This document shows positions 2,786-45,064 of a stretch of 64,000 bases of DNA, piece by piece. Numbering within the stretch: position 1 is the first letter of the stretch; each line of letters opens with the position of its first letter. The stretch comes from Pseudomonadota bacterium. Its GTDB lineage: Bacteria > Pseudomonadota > Gammaproteobacteria > Steroidobacterales > Steroidobacteraceae. The translations under genes and the position numbers were made by a program. The stretch is taken from positions 2,737 to 66,736 of the forward strand of contig CANGFV010000001.1 in assembly GCA_947453225.1 (NCBI GenBank), in the 5' to 3' direction. The notes below the pieces were generated by a model. It saw only the letters and a list, made by a program, of their open reading frames with translations. It made no database searches and had not been told where the DNA came from.

Positions 2786-4681
2786 ATGTGCGGTATTACG
2801 GGCCTGGTTGATCTACGCTCTGAACGTCAAGTTAGTGAGCAATTGTTGCGTGCTATGAACGATTCATTGTTTCACCGAGGCCCCGATGGAGAGGGGTTTC
2901 ATCTCGAACCGGGTGTTGGTTTTGGTCATCGCCGTCTATCCATTATCGATCTTGAGGGTGGAAAACAGCCGCTTTATAACGAAGATCAATCGGTTGTGGT
3001 GACCTTCAATGGAGAAATATTTAATTTCATAGAGGTTGAAAAAGAACTGCTGAGCCGGGGGCATATCTTTCGCACTCGATGTGATACCGAGGTTATTGTC
3101 CATGCCTGGGAAGAATGGGGCGTGGAATGTTTGAAGCGATTTAATGGGATGTTCTCGTTCGCGATTTGGGATCGAAATAAACGCACTCTATTTATCGCGC
3201 GCGATCGTCTGGGCGTTAAACCTTTGTTTTATGCTGAGGTGGATGGTTGGTTAGTATTCGGATCAGAGCTTAAGGCAGTACTAAAACATCCTAATGTTTC
3301 TCGCGATATCGATCCAACTGCCGTAGAAGACTATTTTACTTTTGGTTACGTTCCTGACCCAAAAACAATATACCGGAATATCAAAAAGCTAGAACCCGGC
3401 ACGTATATTTGTCTGCAGCGTGGGCGGCCTATAAAAGTAAATCGTTATTGGGATGTTCCGCTGATGGAAAAGCGTCAAGCTGGTGTTGATTTTTTTGGTA
3501 TACAACAAGAGTTGCGAGATCGTCTCAAAGAATCAGTACGAAAACGTATGGTTGCCGATGTGCCTCTGGGTGCATTCTTATCTGGTGGAATTGACTCAAG
3601 CGCAGTTGTAGCCATGATGCGTGAATTGGGTAACAACAAGATTCTTACCTGCTCAATTGGGTTTAAAGAAGCACAGTATGATGAATCTTTATACGCAAAA
3701 ATGGTTGCCGACGTAAAGCATACTGATCATAAGGCTGAGACTGTTGATTCGTCAGACTACAGTCTGTTAGATAAGCTTGTGGGTATATACGACGAGCCTT
3801 ATGCTGATAGCTCAGCCATTCCTACCTATCGGGTCTGCGAACTTGCTCGCAAGTACGTGACGGTTGCATTGTCTGGTGATGGTGGAGATGAGAGCTTTAT
3901 TGGATATCGTCGCTACCGCTTGATGGCCATGGAGGAATCGCTTCGATCTAAAGTCCCATTAGCGTTGCGGCAAGCAATATTCGGACCTTTAGGTCGCTGG
4001 TACCCAAAGCTTGATTGGGCGCCGCGAATGTTTCGTGCAAAAACAACGCTTCAGGCATTGGCGCGGACTACCGTAGATGCCTATCTACATGGAATTTCCT
4101 TGTCATCAGATGAGATGCGAGGCAGGCTTTTCTCGGCACAGTTCAAGCGTCAGTTGCAGGGATATAGTTCCCGCGAAGTTTTCCACGATCATGTTAAGGA
4201 CAAAACTTTTGAAGATGGGTTGTCTATGGCTCAATACTTAGACTTCAAGACCTATCTGCCTGGTGATATTTTGACTAAGGTAGATCGCGCAAGCATGGCT
4301 CATAGCTTAGAGGTACGCACTCCGTTTCTCGATTATGAGTTTGTCGAGTGGGCGTCTAGTTTGCCGACCGATCTGAAGTTACATCATGGTACCGGTAAGT
4401 ATGTGCTGAAGGAATCGTTGAGAAAGATATTACCCAACGAGGTCTTGTTTCGTAAGAAAATGGGATTTTCGGTGCCAATCGATGTATGGTTTCGAGGGTC
4501 GCTCAATGAGCATATTCGTAAAGCTATGCAGGCGCCGCATTTAAGGGATAGTAGTATTTTTGATGCTAATTATTTGGATCTGATTTTAAGGCAGCATGTA
4601 AGTGGTCAGCGTAATCATAGTGCCGCTCTTTGGTCTTTGTTGATGTTTGAAGGCTTTATGCGTAGTCAGGCCGTCGCATAA
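2786..4681 (+). CDS. Asparagine synthase (glutamine-hydrolysing); exosortase-A-system-type amidotransferase
   Basis: MCGITG N-terminal nucleophile Cys2, PP-loop SGGIDSS, 631 aa, full AsnB architecture. Confidence 0.95.
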   Translation: MCGITGLVDLRSERQVSEQLLRAMNDSLFHRGPDGEGFHLEPGVGFGHRRLSIIDLEGGKQPLYNEDQSVVVTFNGEIFNFIEVEKELLSRGHIFRTRCDTEVIVHAWEEWGVECLKRFNGMFSFAIWDRNKRTLFIARDRLGVKPLFYAEVDGWLVFGSELKAVLKHPNVSRDIDPTAVEDYFTFGYVPDPKTIYRNIKKLEPGTYICLQRGRPIKVNRYWDVPLMEKRQAGVDFFGIQQELRDRLKESVRKRMVADVPLGAFLSGGIDSSAVVAMMRELGNNKILTCSIGFKEAQYDESLYAKMVADVKHTDHKAETVDSSDYSLLDKLVGIYDEPYADSSAIPTYRVCELARKYVTVALSGDGGDESFIGYRRYRLMAMEESLRSKVPLALRQAIFGPLGRWYPKLDWAPRMFRAKTTLQALARTTVDAYLHGISLSSDEMRGRLFSAQFKRQLQGYSSREVFHDHVKDKTFEDGLSMAQYLDFKTYLPGDILTKVDRASMAHSLEVRTPFLDYEFVEWASSLPTDLKLHHGTGKYVLKESLRKILPNEVLFRKKMGFSVPIDVWFRGSLNEHIRKAMQAPHLRDSSIFDANYLDLILRQHVSGQRNHSAALWSLLMFEGFMRSQAVA

Positions 4682-8165: not shown

Positions 8166-10001
8166 TTAATTGGTGATCATAGGGCTTTTAGTATGCTTCT
8201 GCAGCCATGCTTCTAGCATGGCCAAGTCCCAAATCGCATAACCAAAGTATGAGGCGTGTCCTGCTTGATGTTCTTTGATTATGTTGTCAATAAAGTTATT
8301 CTGAATAATTTTTCGTTTCTTCAGGTCATGAAGATACGAGTAGATCATATCTTTCAAAGCTCTGTGCGTTTTTAGCCATAAGCCAAAGGGTAAGCCAAAG
8401 CCGTGTTTTGGTTTGTTGATAATCTCCGCAGGTAAGAAACCTGCCATTGCTTTCTTGTAAAACGATCTTAGCTCCATACCCTCAATTTTTTTGTTGGGTG
8501 GAATTTTAATTGATAAATCGACGACTCGTTGATCGAGCATCGGATAGCTGACTTTGACGCCTGCCAGTTCACACATGGTGCCCACTTTTCGGAGATCATT
8601 ATCCGAAAGAGTAAAGTGCCAGTCGTAGAACAGCATCTGGTGTAGCATGATGTTTGAAGGCGCTAAACGGTAGACATCATCCATTGTGCCAATGGGAGCT
8701 CTTGGGTTAATTGATTTGGCGAATTCAGGCTCGAGCATGGTTTCAGTGCCATTTCGATAGACGAAATTCCATGACTCGAGTCTCTCTGGTAGGGGAATCT
8801 TGGCCTGATCTACGTAACTTCGGAACTTTCGTAAGGGTGTAATCCCCCCGTCTGCTGGAAACATCTTTGAGAGGGGTTCAATTAAGTGGTGTCGCCATGC
8901 TGATGGGATGCGTTGATAAAGCTCAAACACGCTCTGTTTTACATAGCGTTCATTGCCTCCAAAAATTTCATCGCCACCATCTCCGGCCAGTAGGTGGTTG
9001 ATACCCTGTTCCCGGGCCCGTAGTGCGCAAAAGTAAGTGGGCACTGCAGATGAGTTTCCGAAGGGTTCGTCATAGGCTTGAGCGATTAGGGGGAATGCCG
9101 AGACGACGTCCTCAGGAGTGACGTGATATTCAAAGGGCTTGCATTTGAATTGCTTCGAGGCAATCCGTGCATAATGTAGTTCGTCATATGCATCTACACC
9201 AAACCCCATAGAGAATGTTCGGGCGGGTGTCTTACTGACTTTGGCTAGCATACCGGTCACGCTTGAGCTGTCCAGTCCACCACTTAGGAATGCACCGGTG
9301 TGTTCATCAGGTGAGCACTGTTCTACCGCGCTTTGCAGGCCTTGGTGTAGTTCGTCTTTCCAGTCTGCGAAATGGTCTTCTCCTTGCGATTCGATAAACT
9401 TTGGTTGCCAGTAGCGATGCATGGCTAATTGACCCTTTTCAAAGATAGCCATGGTGCCGGGGCGTAGTTTATGAACTCCCTCATAGATCGTATTGGGGGC
9501 AGGAATCATGTGCATGAGCAGAAAGTCGTATAAAGCTTGCTGACTTATGTTGAATTTGCGTAGGGGTGAGTGCGCCAGTGATTCAGCTGAGGTGCCAAAA
9601 CCGATGGCGCCATCACTTACGGTATAGGCCATCCGTTCGATCCCCATGCGGTCGATGGCCAGAACCACCCGGCGTTTTCTAGAGTCGATAAGGGCTAGGC
9701 TAAATCCTCCTTGAATATGGCTTAGGAAGCCATCGCCGAATCGACGATATACATAAAGCAGGGTCTCGGCAGGGGTACCATGTATCGGGTCAGCGCCGGC
9801 GTGGTTCCATTGAGCCTGACCGTTTATGATCGCCACCACGCCCGAGTCACTGGCAATGGAAGGACCCGCTACGGCGTAGCTAAATTGTGGGTCATTAAGT
9901 TTCGGGGTGATGGGCATTGATCCCAGCTCAGTGAGATACTGTTGCCAGCCCAATTGGCCTAAACCAGATCCTGTTATTCCGGCAAATCCCAATAATTTCA
10001 T
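8166..10001 (-). CDS. Asparagine-synthase-family protein lacking the N-terminal catalytic Cys
   Basis: PP-loop SGGLDSS and an AsnB synthetase domain are present (AGDGGDEIFGGNERY). The N-terminus is MKLLGFAGITGSG rather than MCG. Confidence 0.85.
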   Translation of the reverse strand: MKLLGFAGITGSGLGQLGWQQYLTELGSMPITPKLNDPQFSYAVAGPSIASDSGVVAIINGQAQWNHAGADPIHGTPAETLLYVYRRFGDGFLSHIQGGFSLALIDSRKRRVVLAIDRMGIERMAYTVSDGAIGFGTSAESLAHSPLRKFNISQQALYDFLLMHMIPAPNTIYEGVHKLRPGTMAIFEKGQLAMHRYWQPKFIESQGEDHFADWKDELHQGLQSAVEQCSPDEHTGAFLSGGLDSSSVTGMLAKVSKTPARTFSMGFGVDAYDELHYARIASKQFKCKPFEYHVTPEDVVSAFPLIAQAYDEPFGNSSAVPTYFCALRAREQGINHLLAGDGGDEIFGGNERYVKQSVFELYQRIPSAWRHHLIEPLSKMFPADGGITPLRKFRSYVDQAKIPLPERLESWNFVYRNGTETMLEPEFAKSINPRAPIGTMDDVYRLAPSNIMLHQMLFYDWHFTLSDNDLRKVGTMCELAGVKVSYPMLDQRVVDLSIKIPPNKKIEGMELRSFYKKAMAGFLPAEIINKPKHGFGLPFGLWLKTHRALKDMIYSYLHDLKKRKIIQNNFIDNIIKEHQAGHASYFGYAIWDLAMLEAWLQKHTKSPMITN

Positions 10002-11354: not shown

Positions 11355-11606
11355 ATGACGACTTTAGAGCAAGTAAGAAATATCTTGCGTGATGCATTAA
11401 GTTTGGGAATAAGGGCGGATGTGCTTGATGCAGCCTCTCCATTGCTGGGCGCTATTCCGGAATTCGACTCGATGGCTGTAGTGGCCGTCCTCACAATGCT
11501 GGAAGATCAGTTCGGCTTTACAGTAGAAGATGATGAGGTTTCGGCTGATGTCTTTCAAACGATGGGTGCACTAGTGGAGTTTGTTGATAGGAAGTTGGGT
11601 GCGTGA
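11355..11606 (+). CDS. Acyl carrier protein
   Basis: 83 aa, acidic, with phosphopantetheine-site motif FDSMAVV. A 4-nt overlap links it to the downstream hydrolase gene. Confidence 0.8.
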   Translation: MTTLEQVRNILRDALSLGIRADVLDAASPLLGAIPEFDSMAVVAVLTMLEDQFGFTVEDDEVSADVFQTMGALVEFVDRKLGA

Positions 11607-12418
11607 AGCGTGCACAAGTATCTGCTGAGTTTATTGGAGAGGCTGGTCAGCGTATTTTTGTATTAGCGCATCATCCTGAGCAATTTTCGGGAAGGTGCGT
11701 GCTTGTTTGTCCTCCATTTTCGGAAGAAATGAACAAGTCTCGTAGAATGCTAACTGAGTTGGCCCAGCATCTGGTTCAAGGAAATATTGGGCTAGTCATA
11801 CCTGATTTATATGGGACCGGTGATAGTGAGGGAGACTACGTAGATGCTAGCGTGACTCGCTGGACGGATGACCTGGCTCAGACAGAAAAATGGGTAGAAA
11901 GCCGGGGATGGCGAATTGAATCAATTCTAGGTATTCGGTTCGGATGTTTACTGGCAACAAATTATGCCGCCAAATTTACTAAACCCAAGGCGAGTTTGGT
12001 GTTCTGGCAACCTGTACTTGATGGTCGAAAGGCGCTCGATCAGTTCTTACGCTTAAGAGTAGCCGCCTCTTTGATGGCTGACATAAAAGAAACCGTGAGT
12101 GGCTTGAAAGATCGGATTGCTACTGATAAGACCTTAGAGATTGCAGGTTATTCAATTTCAGAGCAAATGGCCAAAGAAATGGAAGTTTTAAAATTAGACG
12201 ATGGCATAAACAAAACAACGGAAAAATTACATTGGTTTGAGGTGTTGCGTGATGCTGATGCGGTTATGCCGCTGCCAGTAGAAAAGACGATTGAGAAAAT
12301 TGCAAATGTAAATTTACAGGCTGTGGTAGGTGATCAGTTCTGGGTCTCAACTGAAATTACTGTTAATCGTGAGTTGATCAATAAAACAACAATCTTATTG
12401 AGTGATGTTGGGCCATGA
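11603..12418 (+). CDS. Alpha/beta-hydrolase-fold protein, resembling exosortase-A-system-associated hydrolase 2
   Basis: Alpha/beta-fold pattern (VLVCPPFSEEMNKSRR ... ILGIRFGCLLA). It sits between the ACP and hydrolase 1 genes and overlaps both. Confidence 0.7.
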   Translation: MKRAQVSAEFIGEAGQRIFVLAHHPEQFSGRCVLVCPPFSEEMNKSRRMLTELAQHLVQGNIGLVIPDLYGTGDSEGDYVDASVTRWTDDLAQTEKWVESRGWRIESILGIRFGCLLATNYAAKFTKPKASLVFWQPVLDGRKALDQFLRLRVAASLMADIKETVSGLKDRIATDKTLEIAGYSISEQMAKEMEVLKLDDGINKTTEKLHWFEVLRDADAVMPLPVEKTIEKIANVNLQAVVGDQFWVSTEITVNRELINKTTILLSDVGP

Positions 12419-13263
12419 ATGAGTCAGTGGTCAATTTTGATTGTCATAGTGATCGGCTAATCGGAATTTTGCATCAACCGCTTGGGGCTCAAAATAAAAT
12501 AGGTGTCGTTATTGTTGTTGGAGGCCCGCAGTATCGAGTAGGTAGTCATCGACAATTCACTATCATGGCTCGTGCCTTCGCTGCGGCGGGGTACCCAACT
12601 TTACGTTTTGATTATAGGGGGATGGGCGATAGTGAAGGTGAGTTTAAAGGGTTTGAATATATTGACGATGATATTAAATCCGCTATAGACGCCTTGGTTA
12701 GGGAAAGTCCAAAAATTGATGGTGTCGTGCTTTGGGGATTATGTGATGCTGCTTCGGCCTGCTTAATTTATGCTAATCAAAAAGATGAGCGAGTGAAGGG
12801 AATGATCTTGGCAAACCCGTGGGTCAGAACTGCTTCTGGGGAGGCCAAGGCTTATATAAAGCATTATTATCTTCAAAGGGTTTTGCAGAGGTCGTTCTGG
12901 ATCAAATTATTTTCCGGGTCATTTAAATTTAAAAAATCAATTTTTAAGTTGTTATTTCTTGCTAAGAATTCTCGTGTTCATAGCTGTGGCTATTCTCTAA
13001 TAAAAAATTCTTATATAGATAGGATGCTTGCTGGCTTTGAATCAAGTGATTTGATGTTTTTATTTTTAATTTCAGATAATGATCTGACGGCTAAAGAATT
13101 TATTGAGCATACAAGAAATTGTGTTTCTTGGAAAAACACTATTTCTATTTCAAAAAAAAGTTCTCATGTTTTGATGGAAAAGTCAGACCATACTTTTTCA
13201 AGTCGAGATTCTTTAAATTCTATGGTTGCGCGCTGTATTGAATGGATTGGCTGTCTGCATTAA
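12415..13263 (+). CDS. Alpha/beta-hydrolase-fold protein, resembling exosortase-A-system-associated hydrolase 1
   Basis: VVIVVGGPQYRVGSHRQF, nucleophile elbow VVLWGLCDAASA, and late SDNDL and SDHTF motifs. The 3' third of the gene is conspicuously AT-rich. Confidence 0.75.
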   Translation: MNESVVNFDCHSDRLIGILHQPLGAQNKIGVVIVVGGPQYRVGSHRQFTIMARAFAAAGYPTLRFDYRGMGDSEGEFKGFEYIDDDIKSAIDALVRESPKIDGVVLWGLCDAASACLIYANQKDERVKGMILANPWVRTASGEAKAYIKHYYLQRVLQRSFWIKLFSGSFKFKKSIFKLLFLAKNSRVHSCGYSLIKNSYIDRMLAGFESSDLMFLFLISDNDLTAKEFIEHTRNCVSWKNTISISKKSSHVLMEKSDHTFSSRDSLNSMVARCIEWIGCLH

Positions 13264-13296
13264 AGGCAATCTTCTGTATTATAAGTTTATAAAAGA

Positions 13297-14349
13297 ATGA
13301 TTAAATACGTGAAAAATATCGAAGAAGTTAGGGATTATTTAGTAAGTTGCGAGCGCGACTTTTTTAATAGCTATGAATGGTATTCTAATTTCGTTGCAAA
13401 CGTAATTGCTGTTGATAAAGATCAGTATCGGTTTATTTGTTGTTTCCATGATGATAAGGATTGGTTCTCTATAGTCCCTGTTAGGCTAAAAAAAGAAAAA
13501 TTTGGATTTAGTGTTACCAGTTTAACTAATTACTATTCGCCAAAATATAAAATTCTTACTAATGGCTTGGCGCCGGATCGATTGGATCTGGTTTTGGAAT
13601 GCTTAGATGGGCTTGCTCCAAGCTGGGGTAAATTCACAATTGATTCACTAGATGAGGCAGACTGTTCTGAGTTAAAAAAGTCTGTTAATTTCTTTAAATA
13701 CCCATCAAGCAGGCTGTTTCATTTTGCCAATTGGTATCTCCCAGTGTTGGGGCGAACTTACGATGAGTATTTTTCTGAATTGTCACCCCGTGTTAAAAAT
13801 ACAGTTACAAGAAAATATAGAGCTTTCGAAAAGCTAGAGAATGCTGAAATTAAGATTTTTAAAGCTTTAGATAAGGTTGAAGCTGCAATAAATGATTTCC
13901 AAGCGGTATACAAAAACAGCTGGAAGCGCCCGGAGCCGTATCCAGAGTTTATTCCCGGATTAATTAAATTAGCTGCTGAGCAGCAAGCCTTAAGGTTAGG
14001 GATTATATATTTAAGGGGTGTTCCTATTGCCGCCCAGTTATGGTTTGTTGCTGATCAGACAGCATATATTTTTAAACTGGCTTACGATGAAGAATACAAA
14101 AAATACTCTGCAGGCACTATTTTGACTGCATCATTGATGAGACATGTTATTGATATAGATAAGGTAGAAGTGGTTGACTTTTTGTCTGGTGACGATGAGT
14201 ACAAAAAAGAGTGGATGTCATGTCGACGTGAACGCTTCTCGATTTGCTTTTATAACTTTTGGTCAATTTATGGGGCGTATATGGCAACGCTTGCTTTTTT
14301 AAGATTTTTTCTAAGCGCTTCAGGGTATATACGTAGGCTATGCAGATAG
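13297..14349 (+). CDS. FemAB-like / GNAT-fold acyltransferase (BioF2-like acetyltransferase domain type)
   Basis: About 350 aa. C-terminal block YIFKLAYDEEYKKYSAGTILTASLMRHVIDIDKVEVVDFLSGDDEYKKEW is typical of the CelD/FemAB-like family found in PEP-CTERM EPS loci. Confidence 0.7.
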   Translation: MIKYVKNIEEVRDYLVSCERDFFNSYEWYSNFVANVIAVDKDQYRFICCFHDDKDWFSIVPVRLKKEKFGFSVTSLTNYYSPKYKILTNGLAPDRLDLVLECLDGLAPSWGKFTIDSLDEADCSELKKSVNFFKYPSSRLFHFANWYLPVLGRTYDEYFSELSPRVKNTVTRKYRAFEKLENAEIKIFKALDKVEAAINDFQAVYKNSWKRPEPYPEFIPGLIKLAAEQQALRLGIIYLRGVPIAAQLWFVADQTAYIFKLAYDEEYKKYSAGTILTASLMRHVIDIDKVEVVDFLSGDDEYKKEWMSCRRERFSICFYNFWSIYGAYMATLAFLRFFLSASGYIRRLCR

Positions 14350-14477
14350 CTAATCATTTCTACTGTATTCATGTCGAAAATATGATTGATATCACATAAT
14401 GAAAATGGAAAGTTGATTCGCTTAGATATATTGTGTAAAAGGAAGCGGTAAAATCTCATTAGATACAGAGGTTTAAA

Positions 14478-15737
14478 ATGAATCGTCGTGAAGTTCTGGC
14501 TGGATCTTTACTATCCATGCTAGTGAGGCCGTCAGGTTTTGCAAGTGCCGCTGTGCCTTGTCCTCCGACTTCCCTCTCCCTTGATAAGGGGGACGTTGCT
14601 TATGCTACTACTTCATGCTTTTCTGGAGTTCCTCCGCTCTGGTATCAAAATATGCCAGACGCTACTTGGTCTAGCATAGCGTCTGTAGGAACTATAGATT
14701 CAGTAAAACCAGCTTTGCATCCCGGTGGCGTATATGAATCAAATGGTCCTATTATTGCTTGGGGTGGCGCAGCTTTTGATACTAAACGATCTGCCTTGAT
14801 GATTGGTTCTCAAGGTGGGCATGGGGATTATTATGGCAATGAAATGTATTCATTGTTAATTAACCAGAGTCAGCCTGTATGGCAGCGTATAACAGCGCCT
14901 AGATATGCATTTAATTCAACTGAGCCTTATATGGATGATATGTCCCCTCGTGCGGTACATAGCGGATCACAAATAGTATATGCAGAGAATGTAGACAAAT
15001 ATGTGTTAGCTATGATGCCTTTCATGGCGCCAAATGGAAATTCATCTAGAAAATTATTTGCATTTGACTGTAATACAAAAACTTGGGGAGAGATGCAATC
15101 TCCTCCATCAGGGGATTCTGGCTATGCGACAGGGTCACAAGACGCTTATGGTGGGAGTTGTTATGATCCTGTGACGCGTTCTATTTGGATGGTTCAGTCA
15201 TCCTCGTGGAGATCAACTTGTAGATTTGATCCTTCTACTGGTTTATATACTGTATTTGATATTTTCAATAACCAGGGTTTTGATGGGGTTGCAGCCTTGT
15301 CACCATCAAAAAGAATAATGATTTATTTAAACGGGCATGTACATGGGCATGATGGTAGTTTCGTTTGGCTAGATCTGAATAAACCAGAGGCAGGCTGGCA
15401 AACCGCAGCATCAATTTCTGGGTCTCCACTAAGTGGTAGAGGATCATCTCTTGTTTGGCATGAAGGTTCTTCTGCCTTTGTTGGATGGAGAGGCTCTGGG
15501 GCTGGGCTTGTCAAGTTGGTTCCTCCTAGTAACCTTTATTCAGGCGACTGGAGGTGGGTGGATATTAGTCCCGGTAGTTCAAATAAGATAAGTCCGACGA
15601 AAGCAAATAATACTGGCACCTATGGTCGTTTTGCGCTTGCAACAAATATTTCAAACTCAGGTCGTGACTGCCTTATCTTAATCAATGCATCAACAGAGCC
15701 AACGTTTGTGTTTAAATTGCCGGTTGGCGGGTTATAA
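14478..15737 (+). CDS. Secreted protein of unknown function with a Tat-type signal; possibly beta-propeller/Kelch-like
   Basis: MNRREVLAGSLLSMLVRPSGFASA (RR-x-hydrophobic motif, then an h-region and AxA). A good RBS (agaggt) lies upstream. Recurring Gly/Trp-rich strand-like segments are present. Confidence 0.6.
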   Translation: MNRREVLAGSLLSMLVRPSGFASAAVPCPPTSLSLDKGDVAYATTSCFSGVPPLWYQNMPDATWSSIASVGTIDSVKPALHPGGVYESNGPIIAWGGAAFDTKRSALMIGSQGGHGDYYGNEMYSLLINQSQPVWQRITAPRYAFNSTEPYMDDMSPRAVHSGSQIVYAENVDKYVLAMMPFMAPNGNSSRKLFAFDCNTKTWGEMQSPPSGDSGYATGSQDAYGGSCYDPVTRSIWMVQSSSWRSTCRFDPSTGLYTVFDIFNNQGFDGVAALSPSKRIMIYLNGHVHGHDGSFVWLDLNKPEAGWQTAASISGSPLSGRGSSLVWHEGSSAFVGWRGSGAGLVKLVPPSNLYSGDWRWVDISPGSSNKISPTKANNTGTYGRFALATNISNSGRDCLILINASTEPTFVFKLPVGGL

Positions 15738-15811
15738 AAAATAGCTCGACAACTTCGGCATCGTTTTGCTGATACGGATTGACCTAAATTAATTGTGGAA
15801 ATTAAAAGATT

Positions 15812-16597
15812 ATGAATTTCATTACCTCCACAATAAAAAATTATTTATTCTGTGATTCTTTTTTTTTTAAAAAAGATAAAATCAAGTCAATAAAAATAAT
15901 CGTTTTAGTTTTTTTATTTTCCGTGCAGCCAGTGCATGGGTATGATTTTGTTCCTTCTGAATCGGAATGGCTTAGTTGGCCAGACTATTGCAAGGCTAGG
16001 TACGTCACTCTCCCCATTGGTGAAAGCTCTGAGTGGGCTCGTGAGGTTAGTCAGGAAAGAATTGCTTTAGCGCGTAAAAGTATTGGTGACGTATTCACAC
16101 ATGTGCATCACTATTGTGCAGGAGCAGCTTGGGTTAATAGAGCAAACATATCATTTGATGATGCCGAAAAAAAAGAGTTTTATCGAAAGGCAATCGATGA
16201 AATATCATACGTTCTAGAGAGGGTTGATAATAGTCAGCCAATAGTTAGCTCTATGATGATAAGGATTGCACAGGCTTATGAGGGATCTGGTGATTCATTA
16301 AATGCTGAAAGATTTTATTGGAATTCGGTTAAATTCTTTGCAGAGGATGGGTCAACCTACGCTTCTCTTGCGCTTTTTTTAAGAAAGAATAAAAGACTTT
16401 TAGAGGCGAGTCAGGTATTAACTGAGGGAGATGCTATTACTGAAGGAAATAGTGTGGATATCAACATAATGATGGCGCATGTTTTACTAGAATTAGGGCA
16501 AGGAAGAGACGCAGTAGCCTATGCGAAAAAAGCCTATACAATGGGTTATCCTCTCCCAAACTTAAAAGAAAAGTTAATAGAACTGAGCTTGTGGTAA
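15812..16597 (+). CDS. Hypothetical exported or membrane-anchored protein with TPR-like helical repeats
   Basis: Hydrophobic segment IKIIVLVFLFSVQPVHG. The C-terminal half has helical repeat character (AQAYEGSGDSLNAERFYWNSV..., AHVLLELGQGRDAVAYAKKAY). The start codon is uncertain. Confidence 0.45.
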   Translation: MNFITSTIKNYLFCDSFFFKKDKIKSIKIIVLVFLFSVQPVHGYDFVPSESEWLSWPDYCKARYVTLPIGESSEWAREVSQERIALARKSIGDVFTHVHHYCAGAAWVNRANISFDDAEKKEFYRKAIDEISYVLERVDNSQPIVSSMMIRIAQAYEGSGDSLNAERFYWNSVKFFAEDGSTYASLALFLRKNKRLLEASQVLTEGDAITEGNSVDINIMMAHVLLELGQGRDAVAYAKKAYTMGYPLPNLKEKLIELSLW

Positions 16598-16609
16598 AAA
16601 ATCTTTGGC

Positions 16610-17881
16610 ATGTATAAATCTACTCTTTCTGATCCTATGAAAAAAAGAGTGCTATTTGTTGCATTCCATTTTCCTCCAATACAGGGTAGCACTGGAGTAA
16701 TTAGAACCCTGTCCTTTGTTAATAATCTTAGTGAGAGCGGGCAGGATTGTGCTGTAATGACTGTGTTGCCTTCTGTGTATGAGGCAAAAAACAAATTAAA
16801 CTACACTCTATTAAATAAAAAAATTAAAATATTCAGAAGTGTTTGTTTCGACGCAAAAAAAACATTTTCTATATTCGGCAAGTATCCGCTTTTTCTAAGT
16901 ATTCCGGACCGATGGCAGTCATGGATTCCTTTTGCAATTCTAGATTATCTGGTTAGAGTTCGTAGATGGAAGCCTGACGTAATAATTTCTACATATCCAA
17001 TTGCAAGCGCACACTGGATAGCATACTTCATACACAGAATTACTGGTATTCCATGGGTTGTTGATCTAAGAGATCCCATGGCGCAGGATGGCTACCCTTC
17101 AGAAAAAAAAATTCATAGCGCATTTTTAAAATTAGAGGAAAAAATATTTACCTTTGCCAGTAAGGTTATATGCACAACGCCTGGTTCGAGGCTTCTCTAC
17201 CGAAATAGATACCCATTATTTCCAGAAAGCAACCTAGTTACCATCACTAATGGATATGAAGAGGAGGTTTTTCCTGAGTTAGTTTCAAAGCAGCATAAAA
17301 AAGCTAATGTTGTTAAGATTTTGCATAGCGGTTCTTTGCAGATTGAAGAGCGTAATCCACAAACATTCTTCCAGGCTTTATCTGAGTTAATTGCCGATAA
17401 TCTGCTTAAATCCAGAGTCGAAGTAACATTCAGGGCTGCGGGTGACTATGCTTTATATGAAAAGCTAGTTGTCGATTTTAATTTGGAAGATATGGTTTTT
17501 TTTAAACCGGCAATTTCTTACAAAGAAGCAACTGAGGAAATGCTTGATGCGGATATTCTTCTTTTGTTACAAGGTGGCTCCTGTAAATTCCAGATTCCAG
17601 CGAAGGTGTATGAGTATTTTTATGCACGTAAACCAATATTGGCTCTAACGGATCTCTCTAGTGATGCAGGTAATTTGTTAAGAGAAATGGATTTTTCTTG
17701 TGTGGCTAATATTGAGGATAAAAAAGAAATTAAATTAAATATTATTCAATGCGTAAATGAGCTAGAGTATGAAAAGTCAAAGTTGCCTTCCGCTGATAGG
17801 ATTAGTCTGTACTCTAGACGTAACTTAACTGCCCAGCTTTCTTATCAGCTTGATGATCTTATTAAAGATAAATATCAATAG
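16610..17881 (+). CDS. GT-B-fold (GT4-like) glycosyltransferase
   Basis: KKRVLFVAFHFPPIQGSTGVIRTLSF N-terminal domain, and a C-terminal PAKVYEYFYARKPILALT block. The alternative start at 16637 (MKKRVLF) is equally plausible. AT-rich composition. Confidence 0.7.
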   Translation: MYKSTLSDPMKKRVLFVAFHFPPIQGSTGVIRTLSFVNNLSESGQDCAVMTVLPSVYEAKNKLNYTLLNKKIKIFRSVCFDAKKTFSIFGKYPLFLSIPDRWQSWIPFAILDYLVRVRRWKPDVIISTYPIASAHWIAYFIHRITGIPWVVDLRDPMAQDGYPSEKKIHSAFLKLEEKIFTFASKVICTTPGSRLLYRNRYPLFPESNLVTITNGYEEEVFPELVSKQHKKANVVKILHSGSLQIEERNPQTFFQALSELIADNLLKSRVEVTFRAAGDYALYEKLVVDFNLEDMVFFKPAISYKEATEEMLDADILLLLQGGSCKFQIPAKVYEYFYARKPILALTDLSSDAGNLLREMDFSCVANIEDKKEIKLNIIQCVNELEYEKSKLPSADRISLYSRRNLTAQLSYQLDDLIKDKYQ

Positions 17882-17984
17882 CTGTTGACAAAATAAATTT
17901 AATTAAATTCGGTTATTGCAATATACCACTGCTCTATCTCTGATTTTTCTGGCATTTCAGATAAGTGTTAGAAGCCATAATTTC

Positions 17985-19157
17985 TTAGCCATCTACAACT
18001 TCTTTAGAGCCATTCCAAGGGTAATTAGAGGGCAAAGTTGTGTTTGGATATGGAATCGCATGACCACCAGGAAAGGTAATTGGATTATCCGAGCAAATAA
18101 TCTCGCTGTAACAGGCAAATGTGTCAACGCTCGGCCATGCGCCTTCCCATGCATTTTCGGTACGAGGTAATAGCTGAATTCCTGTGTAACCGTTGTTGCC
18201 AAGACGAGCATCAGTAGTTCCACCCCAGAGTAAAGGTGCTTGACCATATGGCGCAGACCACACTTTTATCATGCCTGTCCCGTTATATGTTCTGTTAACG
18301 TAAACTTCGTATACAGTCCACCCGTTAGATTCTATTCTTGGGTAATAGTTACTGGAAGGAGTCCATCCATACTGAACTTTTCCGAATCTATTAGCTAGCT
18401 CAGTGCTATTTGCTGGTCTGCTGGTGTTTGCGGGGTCTGCGTTATAAAAAACATGATGAGTATAATTGCTTAGGAAAAGGCCGGACTCATTAGTCCATCC
18501 TGCCGAGCACTTGGATGTTCCTGACGCAGAGGCAGAACTCCATCGGTATAACCCAGGATATGGACCGATGTTATCTCTAAAGAGTACAACCTCGTTTACG
18601 CCAAGGTCGGCAGCATTTCCATAACTTTGGTTTGGCATTGCAATAATGCAAATCTTAGAGCCATTAGCATAAGACCAATTGGCCCAAGTGGAATCTGCGT
18701 ACAACGCGAACTGAAAGTAAAATGAGTCTTTTTTTGTATTCTGAGTTTTAGTGCCAACGCCATCGAAAGAGAAATTCCATGATCCCCCGGCTTCATTCGC
18801 GCCCTCGGCTGAAAACAGATTGGAACGAAGGGATTTTCCACTTAGTTTCACTGATTCTTCAAGTTCGACTTTGTATCTTCCGGAGTTACCATATTTATCG
18901 TTAGCATATGCAGTCTGGTATGCTGCGTTTATTAAAGCATCTCTATTGGAAAATTCAGAAAAATCAGTAGCATAAAAAACGCCACTGCCCGTGGATCTTG
19001 CTTGCCAGTCCGCCCGTGATGGTATTAGGGAGCAGTTCGACGATGCTGTTGATCCGCCAATTACGGAAACCGATGCGGGAGGGCAGGGGGCTCCTCTAGC
19101 TCCCTCAGTTCCAAGAATCGTAGCTGTGCTTGCCAATAAAAACTTTCTGCGATTCAT
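17985..19157 (-). CDS. Secreted protein of unknown function with a Tat-type signal; possibly a jelly-roll (lectin/lyase-like) fold
   Basis: MNRRKFLLASTATILGTEGARGA signal followed by PCPPASVS. Rich in Trp, Tyr, Asn and Gly, with beta-strand character (WTVYEVYVNRTYNGTGMIKVW). Confidence 0.6.
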   Translation of the reverse strand: MNRRKFLLASTATILGTEGARGAPCPPASVSVIGGSTASSNCSLIPSRADWQARSTGSGVFYATDFSEFSNRDALINAAYQTAYANDKYGNSGRYKVELEESVKLSGKSLRSNLFSAEGANEAGGSWNFSFDGVGTKTQNTKKDSFYFQFALYADSTWANWSYANGSKICIIAMPNQSYGNAADLGVNEVVLFRDNIGPYPGLYRWSSASASGTSKCSAGWTNESGLFLSNYTHHVFYNADPANTSRPANSTELANRFGKVQYGWTPSSNYYPRIESNGWTVYEVYVNRTYNGTGMIKVWSAPYGQAPLLWGGTTDARLGNNGYTGIQLLPRTENAWEGAWPSVDTFACYSEIICSDNPITFPGGHAIPYPNTTLPSNYPWNGSKEVVDG

Positions 19158-19463
19158 GAGAGCACCTTAACTGTTAAGTTGCTGTTGATAATATCAAAAA
19201 AATCAGTTGATCTAATTCTAAGTCGCGATTATCCCAAATTTCATGGGATTTTACTGTGACCTGCCTCAAGTTTTATTTAAGGGAATATGAGTAGTACGAT
19301 GGCCAATCATTAAGTCCATCCGCTACTCAAACTGGGGGGACGTCGTTAGTTCAGTCTTTAGTTATAAGGCCGATATCTAATATTGGGACGGCAACTGTTG
19401 CTTCTATAGTAACGATTACTAAAAAGAAAACAATGGTATATGGAATCAGGGATTTATACATTT

Positions 19464-20777
19464 CTAGCTAATAGCAGGAACCTTATCTCTGGCCTTTGGG
19501 TTTTGGTTAGGGTTATTGTTCTTGTTCGCAAGGTGCAAGCAAACGATCAAAAGTGAGGCAAGCCAGATACGAATTTCAGATTTTAGGTAGTCAACAAACA
19601 TGTCGCCAATCATTATTGCGGCAATCATTCCGACCAGGCCTGGGGTTATATTTCCGATTAGTCCGGTCTTGTTTTTTGAGCTTTTTAACAATTTTATTGC
19701 CATGGCTGACATCCAATAAAAATACATTAGATAGAAGGCAATGCCGAAGATGCCTTGTTCAACTAATAATGATAAAACTGTGTTGTGAGATGATCTGCCT
19801 CGGTTATCTTTAGTCCCTGTAAGGTATTTGTCGTCTAAGTATTGAGGGCTCAAAACGGCTGTGCAGCGATGTCCGCAGCCAAATGGATGACTCTTGAACA
19901 TGTCCAGTTGAGCTTTGGCAATTACAAGTCGGCTACTACCCGTGTCAACTCCTTCGACTTGTTCGCCGACTGCTTTCAATGTGTTCATTCGGTCCCAAAA
20001 GGCTTGGTTGGTTAGTGCAAAAAAGCCGAGTACTGCGAGTATGGAAAGTGCTCTAATGAGCCAACGATGATTTTTTTGTGTACATAGGTTAAAGGTCAAT
20101 CCACCTACCGCTGCTGCTAAAAATGCGCTACGGCTAGAGGTTAATATCAGTGCGTTGGCTACAAACGGCATACATAAAGTAATTAGTACTTTTTCCTTTA
20201 ATTTTGCGGTTAGGAAAATTGATGCCCCGATAAAAAGGGCAGACACCATTTGTAATGCTCCAGCATTGGCTTCATTGATGTCAGATCCTCCAAAACTCTC
20301 GAATCGACCTCCATCATATTCTGTATCAGCAACCCAGCCAAGGTAAGTACATCCTAGGATGTGTGCCCATAAGAACCAGTGAAGATGTTTCTCGGAATCA
20401 ATGGTTGTCGTAATAAGCCAAATGAGCATGGCGTACTTTATGTATAGAGCAATCAGTTCACTATGAGTTGTAGGGTCGAGAGCCCATGAGTATTGAACCA
20501 AAAGCCAAATACAAAATAAGCTGTAGCCAATAATGATGCTTTTTCTCCCCTCAGACTTATTTACCTGCGTTTTTTTCTTGTGTATTACGATGGCTACCAT
20601 CGTTACTAAGGCGGCTATTAACGACCAGCGCATGTCTGGGAGCATTGCTCCCCACCACCTTGAGGGTGGATGTAGGTAGTAGGTTGCAACGTAGGTTATA
20701 AGACCGAAAATCGGATGTCTTATAAAAGCGAGGCAGCACCCAATAATAAAACATGCAAAAAAGACGATACCAGTCAT
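19464..20777 (-). CDS. O-antigen ligase / Wzy-like polytopic membrane protein (exosortase-A-associated O-glycosylation-ligase-like)
   Basis: About 10 or more hydrophobic helices with a large periplasmic-type loop. Central block LTSSRSAFLAAAVGGL is typical of the Wzy_C/O-antigen-ligase domain. Confidence 0.75.
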   Translation of the reverse strand: MTGIVFFACFIIGCCLAFIRHPIFGLITYVATYYLHPPSRWWGAMLPDMRWSLIAALVTMVAIVIHKKKTQVNKSEGRKSIIIGYSLFCIWLLVQYSWALDPTTHSELIALYIKYAMLIWLITTTIDSEKHLHWFLWAHILGCTYLGWVADTEYDGGRFESFGGSDINEANAGALQMVSALFIGASIFLTAKLKEKVLITLCMPFVANALILTSSRSAFLAAAVGGLTFNLCTQKNHRWLIRALSILAVLGFFALTNQAFWDRMNTLKAVGEQVEGVDTGSSRLVIAKAQLDMFKSHPFGCGHRCTAVLSPQYLDDKYLTGTKDNRGRSSHNTVLSLLVEQGIFGIAFYLMYFYWMSAMAIKLLKSSKNKTGLIGNITPGLVGMIAAIMIGDMFVDYLKSEIRIWLASLLIVCLHLANKNNNPNQNPKARDKVPAIS

Positions 20778-20800
20778 TATGGATGCTTCTTTGGGTGTAT

Positions 20801-22039
20801 TTATACTAACAATTCAGCGGGTTCTGGATGACTCAAAAACTTCAATGGGCTTGCTGTAAATCCATAAGCGCCCGATTGAAGTACTGCAACCAAGTCGCCT
20901 TCTTCGGCCTCAGCTAATTCCATACGATCAGCCAGTAAATCGAGTGGTGTGCATAAGGGGCCGACTACTGAGGCAATTTCTCGTTTATTGCCCTGAATAC
21001 GATTAGCAATAACCACTGGATAATTTTTACGTATCACTTGTCCAAAATTACCGGAAGCGGCGAGGTGGTGATGCAGTCCACCGTCGGTGACTAGATACAC
21101 TTGTCCACGAGAAATCTTACGATCATTTACTTTGCACACATAGATACCGGCTTCTCCTACCAGATAGCGACCTAATTCTATAATGAGTCTTGCCTGAGGC
21201 AGGGCGTGTCGAGCATGGGTAACTAGACTTTGAAAGTGTTCCTGCAATGAAATCAGATCCAGTATTTGTTCACCAGGAAAATAGGGAATGCCAAATCCAC
21301 CGCCAATATTTAGATGAGTCACTGGACCAGAGGCATGTTTAGCTAGTTCGATAGCAAGGTTCAGTGTTTTTGTTTGAGCCTCAATAATAGAGTCGGGGCG
21401 TAAATTCTGTGAACCGCTGTAAATATGGAATCCGCAAAATTCCAATTGAGTGGTTGCAAGATCGCGTAGTACTTGAGGTACTCGTTCAGCGTCGATACCA
21501 AACTGCTTTGGTCCGCCGCCCATCTTCATGCCTGAAGCCTTTAACTCAAAGTCGGGATTAACGCGAATAGCGATTCGGGTTTTACGGCCTGTGGTTTTGG
21601 CATATTGATTAAGAATTCGAATTTCGCGTTCAGATTCCACATGTACGGTAATACCTGCTACTGCTGCGCGGTGGAGTTCAGACTCTGTTTTTCCTGGGCC
21701 CGCCAGGCTTATGTCTTGTGGATGCGCACCAGCATCTAGAGCAACATCCATTTCTTGAGTGGAAGCAACATCTACGCCGTCAGTTAAGGACACCATGTGT
21801 CTTACCACTGCAGACATCGGATTGGCTTTCATAGCGTAGTTAAGCGCTATATCTTTAGGCAGGATGGCACGTAACTGCTCAATTTTGCGTGTCATGACGC
21901 TTTTGTCGTACACATAAAATGGGGTGCGGCCAACTTCTGCTGCAATTTGCGATATTTTGTGTCCGCCAACGACCAACTCGTCATCCTTGACGCTGAACCA
22001 GGGATGTGGGGCATGTTGAGCGCTGATAAAAATGCTCAT
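20801..22039 (-). CDS. PLP-dependent decarboxylase (DAP/ornithine decarboxylase fold), exosortase-A-associated type
   Basis: PLP-Lys motif YAMKANP, GGGFGIPY glycine loop, C-terminal beta-barrel with VVGPLCTPLD. A 4-nt overlap links it to the upstream ligase gene. Confidence 0.9.
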   Translation of the reverse strand: MSIFISAQHAPHPWFSVKDDELVVGGHKISQIAAEVGRTPFYVYDKSVMTRKIEQLRAILPKDIALNYAMKANPMSAVVRHMVSLTDGVDVASTQEMDVALDAGAHPQDISLAGPGKTESELHRAAVAGITVHVESEREIRILNQYAKTTGRKTRIAIRVNPDFELKASGMKMGGGPKQFGIDAERVPQVLRDLATTQLEFCGFHIYSGSQNLRPDSIIEAQTKTLNLAIELAKHASGPVTHLNIGGGFGIPYFPGEQILDLISLQEHFQSLVTHARHALPQARLIIELGRYLVGEAGIYVCKVNDRKISRGQVYLVTDGGLHHHLAASGNFGQVIRKNYPVVIANRIQGNKREIASVVGPLCTPLDLLADRMELAEAEEGDLVAVLQSGAYGFTASPLKFLSHPEPAELLV

Positions 22040-23631
22040 GCTTTACTTCCCTCGAAAAGAGTTCCTAGTTCAGTCGCAATACGGGGGCGGTCATACTTTC
22101 CATTTGGGTTGCGGGGAAGTGTGTCTCTGTATTCAATTTTTGCAGGCACCATGAATGCAGGAAGTTGTTTTTTGCACTCATTGAGAAGTTTAGTGGTGTC
22201 TTCTGCAATGCCAGGTGCGGTTGCGGCTACAACTACAATGGCCTGTCCTAGTGTTGGGTGCGGCACGCCAACCGCTGCCGCATCTGCAACTAAGCCAGTG
22301 GCAAAGATGACCTCTTCAATTTCACTCGGGCTGACGCGATAACCGGATGTTTTAATCATTTCGTCTGTACGACCTACAAAATAGAGATATCCATCTTCAT
22401 CCATTTTCACGGTATCTCCAGACCACACGGCCATTTCGGTCAGCACCAGACCGGTATCTTGGTTGGGTACGGGTTTGTATCGTTCGCCTGTTTTGATCGG
22501 ATCATTCCAGTAGCCTAGGGCCACTAAAGAACCGCGATGCACCAATTCACCTGGTTCGTGCGCAGCGCATGGACTGCCATCCGGTCTGACTACCATGATT
22601 TCTGCGTTAGGAATAGCTTTGCCCATCGAGCCTGGACGCCGGTCGATTTCTTCAGGCGGTAGATACGTTGATCTAAAAGCTTCAGTGAGGCCGTACATCA
22701 AGTAGGGTTTGGTGCTGGGTAGCGTTGAGCGCAGTTTAGCAAGAGTAGCGTTGGGCATGGCTCCACCTGAGTTGGTGATATACCGTAATGATTGTTTGGC
22801 TTCTTCCGGCCAGTCGAGGTCAGCCAACTGAGACCACAGGGGCGGAACACCGGCCAACCCCGTGATTTTATCTTTGGCGACTAGGTTAATAATGTCGCGT
22901 GGAAAGAGGTAGTCCATTAGGGTCACACTTGCCCCTACGTGAAACGCAGTAGTGAGTTGACTAAATCCATAATCGAATGACAGTGGTAGCACAGCCAGTA
23001 GTCGATCATCGGGTGTGTTGCCTAAATACTGCGCCACACTATGTGCGCCGGTCACCATGTTCCTGTGAGATAGAACAACGCCTTTAGGTTTTCCAGTGCT
23101 GCCTGAGGTGTAGAGGATGGCTGCCATGTCGGTGTCAATGACCCGATGTCTTTGCATGTTAGGTGCGGCGTCTATTGCGGTTTGCCAATTACATATTGCA
23201 TAGGGGGCAGTAGAGTTGACAGACTGGTTTGTTGTCTTATCAACCAGAATGACCTGTCGTAAGTCATGACAGGTGTTTAAGGTCTCTTTAAGAAGCTCGA
23301 ATCGATCGTTTGAGGTAACTAAGGCTCGCACATTGCAATCACGAAGAATGTGCTCGACTTGAGCAGGTTTAAGTACGGGATTGATAGGAACAAATACGCA
23401 GCCTGCCGCAACGGTACCAAAAATACTGACTACAGTTTCATATTGCTTCGGTAGGAAGATAGCGACGCGCTCTTGACGGTTGAGGTCGAGTGCCAATATC
23501 GCATTACAAAACGAATCTATGTAGTCCTGAAGCGCTCCATAAGTATAGGCCGACTGACGATGTCGAATAGCTATCCTATCAGGGGCATTTGCTGAGGAAA
23601 TTTCCGTTAGTTCATGGAGCAGAGTGGTCAT
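22036..23631 (-). CDS. AMP-forming acyl-CoA/acyl-ACP ligase (adenylate-forming superfamily), exosortase-A-associated type
   Basis: AMP-binding signature LYTSGSTGKPKGV; YGLTE; GDTVKMDEDGYLYFVGRTDEMIKTSGYRVSPSEIE; C-terminal PRNPNGK. Confidence 0.9.
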   Translation of the reverse strand: MTTLLHELTEISSANAPDRIAIRHRQSAYTYGALQDYIDSFCNAILALDLNRQERVAIFLPKQYETVVSIFGTVAAGCVFVPINPVLKPAQVEHILRDCNVRALVTSNDRFELLKETLNTCHDLRQVILVDKTTNQSVNSTAPYAICNWQTAIDAAPNMQRHRVIDTDMAAILYTSGSTGKPKGVVLSHRNMVTGAHSVAQYLGNTPDDRLLAVLPLSFDYGFSQLTTAFHVGASVTLMDYLFPRDIINLVAKDKITGLAGVPPLWSQLADLDWPEEAKQSLRYITNSGGAMPNATLAKLRSTLPSTKPYLMYGLTEAFRSTYLPPEEIDRRPGSMGKAIPNAEIMVVRPDGSPCAAHEPGELVHRGSLVALGYWNDPIKTGERYKPVPNQDTGLVLTEMAVWSGDTVKMDEDGYLYFVGRTDEMIKTSGYRVSPSEIEEVIFATGLVADAAAVGVPHPTLGQAIVVVAATAPGIAEDTTKLLNECKKQLPAFMVPAKIEYRDTLPRNPNGKYDRPRIATELGTLFEGSKA

Positions 23632-36163: not shown

Positions 36164-36205
36164 CAAATCTTCAGCGCTGTTCGATCCTTAAGAGGTCGCA
36201 AGCGC

Positions 36206-42246: not shown

Positions 42247-42283
42247 GCTTTAACCTATGGTGATTTCAATAGAGTTAAATTTG

Positions 42284-42772
42284 CTAGCAGGTGCTGTCTA
42301 AATTTGTAGTCGTACTGCAAGCATTTTCATCGTATGTCAATTCGTTTGATCGTTTAACGACCTCATATATTTCTTGCATAACTTTCGCTGACGATGAGCG
42401 TTCTGCGGTTCCTGTTGAGGTTATATGGTAGTAGACTGCACCAAAAGTTCCTTCACTATTGCCAAGCGATGTCATCTCGACTTTACCGCTATTTGCTAGG
42501 TCGATTGTGTAGCTATATAAATTATTTGATTTGGTAAATGGGAAAGTTTCTGGTGCGTCAAAATTACCATTCTTTATCGCATCAGCAAGCCCAGCTTCGG
42601 CATTTGCTAGGGCTCGTGTCCGATACTGCTCATTGCCAGCCATGATCAAATCTAGCGTAGCGGTATTCATGCTAGAGATGGCAAGTAGGCTCAGGGCAAC
42701 GAGTAGGATTAGTGCAACAATGAGTGCAGCGCCTCTGTGTTTTGAATGAGATGAGATAATAAAAGTACTCAT
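42284..42772 (-). CDS. pilX: Type IV pilus minor pilin PilX
   Basis: RGAALIVALILLVALSLLAISSMNTATLDLIMAGNEQ matches the PilX N-terminal domain pattern. Position in the operon is consistent. Confidence 0.8.
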   Translation of the reverse strand: MSTFIISSHSKHRGAALIVALILLVALSLLAISSMNTATLDLIMAGNEQYRTRALANAEAGLADAIKNGNFDAPETFPFTKSNNLYSYTIDLANSGKVEMTSLGNSEGTFGAVYYHITSTGTAERSSSAKVMQEIYEVVKRSNELTYDENACSTTTNLDSTC

Positions 42773-42795
42773 TAGAATAGTAAGTCTTATATGTT

Positions 42796-43767: not shown

Positions 43768-43775
43768 CTGGTGTT

Positions 43776-44297: not shown

Positions 44298-44300
44298 AAG

Positions 44301-44936: not shown

Positions 44937-45064
44937 GCGCGCGACTGTACCCGAACCTTGCGGTGAAGATGGGGATGTCCGATATTCGGTCGGCTGTGGC
45001 AGATAAGCGGTTGCACTAGGGTTAGGGGTAGGTCGAGTCAGCGCTTGCCATTTCAAATGGGGTG

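Follow-up and report, generated by a model that had tools for sequence, protein, structure and literature searches.

What does a carrier-protein cassette make inside an exopolysaccharide (EPS) locus, and where does its product go? The question is raised by a 64-kb stretch of DNA from a bacterium of the Steroidobacteraceae (the window, part of a 163-kb metagenomic contig), which we read together with the 10 kb upstream of it on the same contig, 74 kb in all. On the plus strand of the window, an 83-aa acyl carrier protein (ACP; 11355..11606) is followed by two alpha/beta-hydrolase-fold proteins, hydrolase 2 (271 aa; 11603..12418) and hydrolase 1 (282 aa; 12415..13263). The minus strand holds a stand-alone adenylating ligase (531 aa; 22036..23631) and a fold-type III pyridoxal 5′-phosphate (PLP) decarboxylase (412 aa; 20801..22039). 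Our answer, which we hold at about even probability, is that these proteins form a cytoplasmic carrier-protein pathway whose product, an omega-amino-acyl thioester, is passed on to the EPS pathway.

In the mechanism we propose, the ligase would activate an amino acid with a second carboxylate and load it on the phosphopantetheine of the carrier. The likeliest substrates would be L-Asp, loaded through its beta-carboxyl, or L-Glu, loaded through its gamma-carboxyl, and longer amino-dicarboxylates are also possible. The PLP enzyme would then remove the free alpha-carboxyl on the carrier, as its homology to BtrK and VinO suggests, giving beta-alanyl-S-carrier or 4-aminobutyryl-S-carrier. The acyl group would pass to Cys110 of hydrolase 1 by transthioesterification and be transferred, not hydrolysed; hydrolase 2 would join hydrolase 1 in a heteromeric complex without catalysing anything itself. 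The neighbouring genes weakly suggest an acceptor among the cytoplasmic EPS precursors, such as a de-N-acetylated amino sugar in the lipid-linked repeat unit; a GNAT protein (where present) and a glutaminase-dead AsnB-like enzyme could add optional further amide-bond steps. The net result would be an amine-bearing, non-carbohydrate decoration on an XrtA-type biofilm polysaccharide. We infer substrate, acceptor and product alike: homology, conserved residues and gene coupling point to the loading and decarboxylation steps, and conserved residues and gene fusions to the transfer.

The surroundings of the cassette are those of a typical XrtA-type EPS locus. Eight XrtA-system marker families (PrsT, TIGR03027, TIGR03007, TIGR03018, TIGR03006, TIGR03108, stp2 and stp3) score above or near their curated cut-offs in the window and the 10 kb upstream. 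The locus comprises PrsT, the export protein, the chain-length determinant and the tyrosine kinase beside the amidotransferase TIGR03108, stp2 and stp3, continues with a Wzx flippase and WecB, and ends at about 28457, ahead of rne. An earlier note on this DNA had described seven open reading frames (ORFs) here, the five above together with a FemAB/GNAT-like protein and a membrane protein, and had matched the set to exosortase-A-associated families. All seven lie where it had placed them, on the same strands, and the motifs quoted for the carrier, ligase and decarboxylase are present. The 4-nt overlaps are real as well, joining ACP to hydrolase 2 (GTGA), hydrolase 2 to hydrolase 1 (ATGA) and ligase to decarboxylase (ATGA). 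A check with profile hidden Markov models bore out the family assignment for four proteins, which pass TIGR03098 (ligase), TIGR03099 (decarboxylase), TIGR03100 (hydrolase 1) and TIGR03101 (hydrolase 2), and not for the FemAB/GNAT-like protein and the membrane protein, which fail TIGR03019 and TIGR03097, respectively. A hydropathy scan of the ligase, carrier, decarboxylase, both hydrolase-fold proteins, the GNAT and the AsnB paralogue shows no membrane-spanning stretch, and an evident signal peptide is absent from each, so the chemistry of the cassette should be cytoplasmic and precede flipping by Wzx.

Proposed loading and decarboxylation on a carrier

The ligase matches TIGR03098 over its full length (793.2 bits, cut-off 592.35; residues 4-520 on model positions 1-516) and carries the motif ILYTSGSTGKPKGV. 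Among its relatives of solved structure, the adenylation domain of the nonribosomal peptide synthetase (NRPS) LgrA ranks first (252 bits), followed by 3wvn and 3wv4 (193 bits), which we take to be entries for VinN, an enzyme that loads 3-methyl-Asp through the beta-carboxyl. Several 'beta-aminoacyl-ACP synthetases' come next, and CoA ligases stand lower in the ranking (malonyl-CoA synthetase, 167 bits; FadD5, 150 bits). On the amino-acid adenylation model TIGR01733 (AA-adenyl-dom), the ligase scores 268.9 bits, below the cut-off of 317.4. From its sequence the protein looks like an NRPS-type adenylating enzyme and a loader of amino acids. For this type of ligase, Asp has the closest precedent, and Glu has the one set by BtrK.

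Related loci came from a pattern scan of species-representative genomes, which returned at least 549 loci with a decarboxylase homologue. We analysed 80 of these, from Gamma- and Betaproteobacteria and one Acidobacteriaceae metagenome-assembled genome (MAG). For the 47 of them whose sequence extends 8 kb or more to either side, we counted the genes found up to 10 kb away from the decarboxylase. The ligase pockets of 70 family members from these related loci were aligned with a GrsA fragment. Asp220, Ser224, Met312, Arg320 and Lys512 are invariant in all 70 and, with a numbering that rests on the motif alignment, equal GrsA positions 235, 239, 322, 330 and 517; pocket positions 236/278/299/301 of GrsA occur in two variants, A/A/A/T and Y/G/T/S. 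In adenylation enzymes, the Asp at GrsA position 235 contacts the amino group of the substrate (PMC11284099). The invariant pocket arginine, Arg320, would fit a second, anionic group on the same substrate.

The carrier passes PF00550 (24.8 bits, cut-off 20.8) and contains the motif EFDSMAV, with Ser39 in its DSM core; across 33 carrier homologues the motif is conserved as PELDSMAV. A homologue of solved structure, PDB 2LKI, aligns with it end to end (E 1.7e-23) and keeps the DSM serine. That entry was deposited as a 'putative uncharacterized protein', its record names no function or partner, and a literature search on 2LKI found no paper. The dedicated carrier is probably what the ligase loads, as the earlier note had proposed, and in 14 of the 47 loci the two genes are adjoining, divergent neighbours. 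By the description of TIGR03098, its gene adjoins that of a TIGR03099 decarboxylase; here the two overlap by 4 nt, and in 39 of the 47 loci the decarboxylase is immediately preceded by the ligase.

The decarboxylase exceeds the TIGR03099 cut-off (613 bits against 478.45) and carries the motif YAMKANP. Its closest solved relative is BtrK (7ru7/2j66; 265 bits, 39.7% identity, E 8e-78), both entries of which are named 'L-glutamyl-[BtrI acyl-carrier protein] decarboxylase'. The best relative among the diaminopimelate (DAP) decarboxylases, 2p3e, follows at 176 bits (34.2% identity, E 1e-50). The motif DGG(L/M)HHH(L)AAS is common to the decarboxylase and BtrK, where LysA has DAGMNDLIRPS, and both carry a 6-residue insertion after the HHH motif. 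BtrK decarboxylates Glu only when it is thioester-bound to BtrI (PMC7857480), and VinO likewise acts only on an ACP-bound substrate, 3-methylaspartyl-VinL (PMC11284099). By sequence, the enzyme of the window resembles the carrier-dependent BtrK type more closely than it does the free-substrate decarboxylases. Since BtrK is its nearest solved relative, the order of events would most likely be loading first and decarboxylation on the carrier second, which sharpens the earlier proposal of an enzyme that 'makes or modifies an amine' to one that acts on a carrier-bound amino acid. The protein is at most 69% identical to its homologues in Steroidobacteraceae and Sinobacteraceae MAGs, and the name BtrK already appears in one automated MAG annotation.

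One point of chemistry would favour the beta-alanyl product. Thioesters of 4-aminobutyrate readily cyclise, and the butirosin pathway protects its own by aminoacylating it a second time. No enzyme for such a second, protecting aminoacylation is evident in the locus.

The database name of the ligase family, 'acyl-CoA ligase', suggests a more classical division of labour. The ligase, of the acyl-CoA or fatty-acyl kind, would then acylate the carrier so that the polymer or a protein could be lipidated, and the decarboxylase would separately turn free DAP, ornithine or lysine into an amine. Fatty-acid CoA ligase models do reach 313 bits on the ligase, and the lysA model TIGR01048 reaches 259 bits on the decarboxylase (cut-off 297.9), but both scores fall under the curated cut-offs, and NRPS adenylation domains and BtrK come first in the solved-structure rankings. 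The amine-binding Asp is invariant among the ligases, and the NDLIRPS of LysA is replaced by the BtrK-type HHH..AS motif with its insertion. The overlap of the two genes in the window and their adjacency in 39 of 47 loci also speak against a separate role for each enzyme, and we regard this arrangement as unlikely.

The hydrolase pair and a proposed transfer step

If an omega-amino-acyl thioester is formed on the carrier, it would need a transferase, and the two hydrolase-fold proteins are our candidates. Hydrolase 1 clears TIGR03100 with 296.5 bits (cut-off 168.45), and its GLCD aligns with the GLS of serine esterases. Cys110, Asp223 and His259 are invariant in 33 homologues and, in an AlphaFold2 (AF2) model with a predicted local distance difference test score (pLDDT) of 87.3, sit where a canonical triad has its residues, Cys110 behind strand 103-109, Asp223 behind strand 214-220 and His259 ahead of the last helix. 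Hydrolase 2 passes TIGR03101 narrowly (214.3 bits, cut-off 202.75). At the strand-elbow-helix position of the nucleophile it has an invariant arginine, Arg112, it has no conserved His, and it contains the invariant family motif FxEEMNKxR (AF2 model, pLDDT 93.6). That a protein with a Cys nucleophile stands here beside one without any nucleophile had escaped the earlier note. We propose that hydrolase 1 is a Cys enzyme and hydrolase 2 its predicted pseudo-enzyme partner. Foldseek matches both models to lipase, feruloyl-esterase and monoglyceride-lipase folds at TM scores of 0.6-0.76. A Cys nucleophile with a thioester intermediate would favour transfer over hydrolysis.

Gene fusions tie the two proteins together. 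Hydrolase 2 is fused to the N terminus of hydrolase 1 in two of the 80 loci (L040 and L049). An exhaustive search with a hydrolase 2 profile, which gave 1416 representative proteins at E <= 1e-30, found the same fusion in 12 of the best 150 representatives (~8%). All 12 fusion proteins keep GLRxG, GLCDA and DHTFS. These fusions argue for a single complex.

The acceptor raises a second alternative, in which the amine has a protein partner. An omega-amino-acyl group on the EPS repeat unit would offer a free-amine nucleophile that resolves the acyl-enzyme of XrtA, and PEP-CTERM proteins would thereby become covalently linked to the polysaccharide. All four families are curated as XrtA-associated and lie inside an XrtA-type locus, and a primary amine would terminate the predicted product. 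The same contig carries two core XrtA genes, for a deacetylase and a protein of the FemAB family: a true TIGR03019 protein (363 bits) lies at L002:6943-8022, about 1.4 kb upstream of the window start, and adjoins the XrtA deacetylase TIGR03006. Neither an xrtA gene nor a PEP-CTERM tail was found in the window or the 10 kb upstream, however, and a literature search found no published evidence of exosortase transfer to an amine. We consider such a linkage distinctly improbable. If true, it would be a Gram-negative counterpart of the Fem-bridge/sortase system, in which carrier-protein chemistry replaces aminoacyl-tRNA.

Conserved core and accessory genes

Comparison of the related loci separates a stable core from a variable periphery. 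The ligase is present in 91% of the 47 loci, the ACP in 26 (55%), hydrolase 1 in 45% and hydrolase 2 in 40%. The core is the ligase-decarboxylase pair, with ACP, hydrolase 2 and hydrolase 1 often divergent beside it. The commonest layout, seen mostly in betaproteobacterial loci, reads hydrolase 1, hydrolase 2 and ACP leftwards, then ligase and decarboxylase rightwards, in some cases followed by the AsnB-like gene. Two further neighbours are more constant than the GNAT or the membrane protein of the earlier list, from which they had been left out: the AsnB paralogue with no glutaminase Cys (21 of 47 loci, 45%; directly after the decarboxylase in 8) and a GT4-like protein (17 of 47, 36%; typically near hydrolase 1).

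The window itself has a convergent, two-arm layout, which the earlier note had called a split cassette. That description holds for the arrangement of the genes and not for any disruption. The same layout recurs in Steroidobacteraceae-type loci (L004 and L054) and partly in L013 and L015. Genes for a 419-aa protein, a 261-aa protein and the GT4-like protein recur beside the cassette in L004, L013, L015 and L054, which are Steroidobacteraceae-type and Acidobacteriaceae loci, so the separation of the arms is a lineage layout. An unrelated insertion was considered for the low-GC middle block (14478-17881; GC 0.36-0.44) and rejected, as three of its genes recur with the cassette in relatives. The GC content is 0.36-0.38 over hydrolase 1, the GNAT, the 261-aa ORF and the GT4-like gene (12415-17881) and 0.43-0.49 elsewhere in the locus, a stretch that resembles the variable centre of O-antigen-type loci.

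The AsnB paralogue (611 aa; 8166..10001, minus strand) has an asparagine-synthase domain (PF00733, 252 bits) and reaches 275 bits on TIGR03108, far below the cut-off of 817. Its N terminus reads MKLLGFAGI, against MCGI in the neighbouring TIGR03108 protein, and its orthologues do not conserve the glutaminase Cys. It probably works as an amide synthetase that needs ATP but makes no use of glutamine. In three Thauera/Rhodocyclaceae loci (L020, L039 and L057) the paralogue sits between ligase and decarboxylase, which again ties it to that pair; in another, L022, no ligase was detected within 10 kb. The EPS locus of the window contains three distinct asparagine-synthase-like genes, at L002:8070-10004 and at window positions 2786-4681 and 8166-10001 (minus strand). 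The XrtA amidotransferase cut-off of 817 bits is exceeded only by the gene at 2786-4681 (972 bits). The window ORF at 59-1630 is no further gene, but the 3′ part that the window start leaves of L002:8070-10004.

The FemAB-like and O-glycosylation-ligase-like proteins, which the earlier note had counted as parts of the cassette, proved to belong to neither named XrtA family. The first, a GNAT of 350 aa (13297..14349, plus strand), matches PF13480 (Acetyltransf_6; 91.6 bits, cut-off 22) and has no match to TIGR03019 even at E 0.01 (cut-off 260.35 bits). It is 19% identical to the true TIGR03019 protein upstream, and no solved sequence relative of it was found. We propose that it is an optional accessory acyl- or aminoacyl-transferase outside the XrtA FemAB family. 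The second, a membrane protein of 437 aa with about 9 transmembrane helices (19464..20777, minus strand), is a Wzy_C protein (PF04932; 68 bits, cut-off 31.7) that scores 96.1 bits on TIGR03097, the putative O-glycosylation ligase, and so fails its cut-off of 188.1. It and the Wzx flippase are the only multi-spanning proteins of the locus, and parts of a Wzx/Wzy system are present, so the Wzy_C protein is most simply the polymerase. We conclude that it is probably the EPS repeat-unit polymerase and lies outside the carrier pathway.

These results bear on a third explanation, the one given in the earlier note, in which the moiety, set free by the FemAB-like protein and the hydrolases, is coupled extracellularly by the O-antigen-ligase-like membrane protein. 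All of its genes do occur together in the window. The GNAT and the Wzy_C protein nevertheless fall short of the XrtA family models and are found with the core in no more than 5 (11%) and 4 (9%) of the 47 loci, respectively, and the membrane protein offered as the extracellular coupler is the sole polymerase candidate of a Wzx/Wzy-type locus. We find this version very unlikely.

Between the arms, the GT4-like protein (423 aa; 16610..17881, plus strand) matches PF13579 and the N-terminal domain PF13439. It is preceded by the two lineage-specific ORFs of 419 and 261 aa (14478..16597, plus strand), which have no curated match in NCBIfam or Pfam. The longer of the two, of 419 aa, carries a twin-arginine-like signal together with a CPP motif, and the one of 261 aa combines a membrane anchor with a TPR-like C terminus. 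A 390-aa protein on the other strand (17985-19157) is also without a family and shares with the 419-aa protein (14478-15737, plus strand) a twin-arginine-like N terminus (MNRR..L) followed by CPP. By these signals, both are probably exported enzymes that act on the polymer.

Clustering of the ORFs across the 80 loci recovered mainly shadow ORFs. The real extra neighbours are a sugar aminotransferase-like protein, a beta-helix protein, a small GNAT and the TIGR03013 priming transferase, and neither a second ligase nor a phosphopantetheinyl transferase is apparent among them. In one locus from Candidatus Accumulibacter proximus (L034:12560-18535), the canonical ligase-decarboxylase pair is followed a few kb downstream by another ligase and another decarboxylase, both more distantly related (312 and 270 bits, respectively). 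This second pair may belong to a related pathway with another substrate.

Objections, precedents and significance

A last alternative, in which hydrolase 1 and its inactive partner oligomerise the omega-aminoacyl thioester to a short polyamide in the manner of the class III polyhydroxyalkanoate (PHA) synthase PhaC/PhaE, draws on the likeness of a thioester-acting Cys-Asp-His hydrolase with an obligate non-catalytic partner, but no PHA synthase appears in the Foldseek top 50 of either model and nothing else speaks for it, so we think it highly implausible.

Several points weigh against an on-carrier pathway that feeds the EPS. On the ligase, long-chain fatty-acid CoA ligase models from NCBIfam outscore the amino-acid adenylation model, both remaining below cut-off, and the role that we give Arg320 follows from its place in the pocket rather than from a residue-level alignment with VinN. 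The decarboxylase is no more than about 40% identical to BtrK, which leads the DAP decarboxylases by a moderate margin. The BtrK and VinO pathways protect the new amine by a second aminoacylation, and there is no second ligase here. In 18 of the 47 loci the decarboxylase has neither ACP nor hydrolase 1 within 10 kb. Foldseek returned generic esterase neighbours for both hydrolase-fold models and no specific functional relative, and the proposed acceptor is suggested, weakly, by the neighbourhood of the cassette. Finally, a literature search found no reaction for TIGR03098-03101 and no biochemistry of the cassette, nor, as the earlier note had said, any paper that gives its substrate or product.

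Several known systems resemble the proposed pathway in part. In Dlt (DltA/DltC) and AlmEFG, an adenylating ligase and a dedicated carrier put an amino acid on an envelope polymer, as we propose for the cassette. These systems have no decarboxylase, and transfer is carried out by a membrane MBOAT or an LpxL-type acyltransferase, not by a soluble Cys alpha/beta-hydrolase pair. The butirosin enzymes BtrI, BtrJ and BtrK of Bacillus circulans share with the cassette a dedicated small carrier and a decarboxylase for the carrier-bound substrate; there, the side-chain carboxyl of an acidic amino acid serves for loading and the product goes to a sugar amine. In contrast, the butirosin loader BtrJ is an ATP-grasp enzyme, whereas that of the cassette is an adenylating ligase. 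The transfer and deprotection enzymes BtrH and BtrG are unrelated to the pair of Cys hydrolase and pseudo-hydrolase, and the product is an antibiotic, not a matrix polysaccharide.

In the macrolactam starter-unit pathways of vicenistatin (VinN/VinL/VinO) and fluvirucin (FlvN), an ANL-type adenylation enzyme loads 3-methyl-Asp or Asp via the beta-carboxyl onto a stand-alone ACP, and the ACP-bound amino acid is the substrate of a PLP decarboxylase (PMC11284099). The vicenistatin pathway, set in polyketide biosynthesis, differs in needing a second ligase (VinM), a dipeptidyl transferase (VinK) and a polyketide synthase, all three of which the cassette lacks, and its VinJ is a Ser amidohydrolase. 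The four proteins of the window are members of TIGR03098-TIGR03101, families set by comparative genomics only. For the carrier, the AsnB-like paralogue and the GT4-like gene, no XrtA-specific NCBIfam model scores above cut-off.

Other parts of the window encode surface structures and unrelated functions. A type IV pilus minor-pilin operon (38158-45194, minus strand) comprises GspH/FimU-like, Tt1218-like pilin, PilW and PilX genes and ends in a 1362-aa protein at the expected PilY1 position, with no Pfam or NCBIfam match. A Tad/Flp-type pilus set (52059-60708, plus strand) contains a secretin, a CpaE-like ATPase, a TadA-like ATPase and two ORFs of 320 aa, the size of the membrane proteins. An adenylate/guanylate cyclase-domain protein is encoded at 45910-47016. 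At 35186-37126, the gene immediately behind fabH, which itself comes after plsX, encodes an L,D-transpeptidase, where fabD-fabG-acpP would be usual.

The gene families of the cassette are already catalogued and very common; the proposed chemistry is the new part. New are the BtrK/VinO-type, on-carrier reading of the ligase and decarboxylase, the pair of Cys enzyme and pseudo-enzyme, and the revised list of core and optional genes. Floc and biofilm formation in many environmental and wastewater bacteria rests on XrtA-type loci. The on-carrier reading turns the loaded amino acid, a 44 Da loss from the carrier and the acceptor into concrete questions for the bench. It also predicts an amine-bearing, non-sugar substituent of the matrix, which would change the charge of the polymer and its potential for cross-linking.

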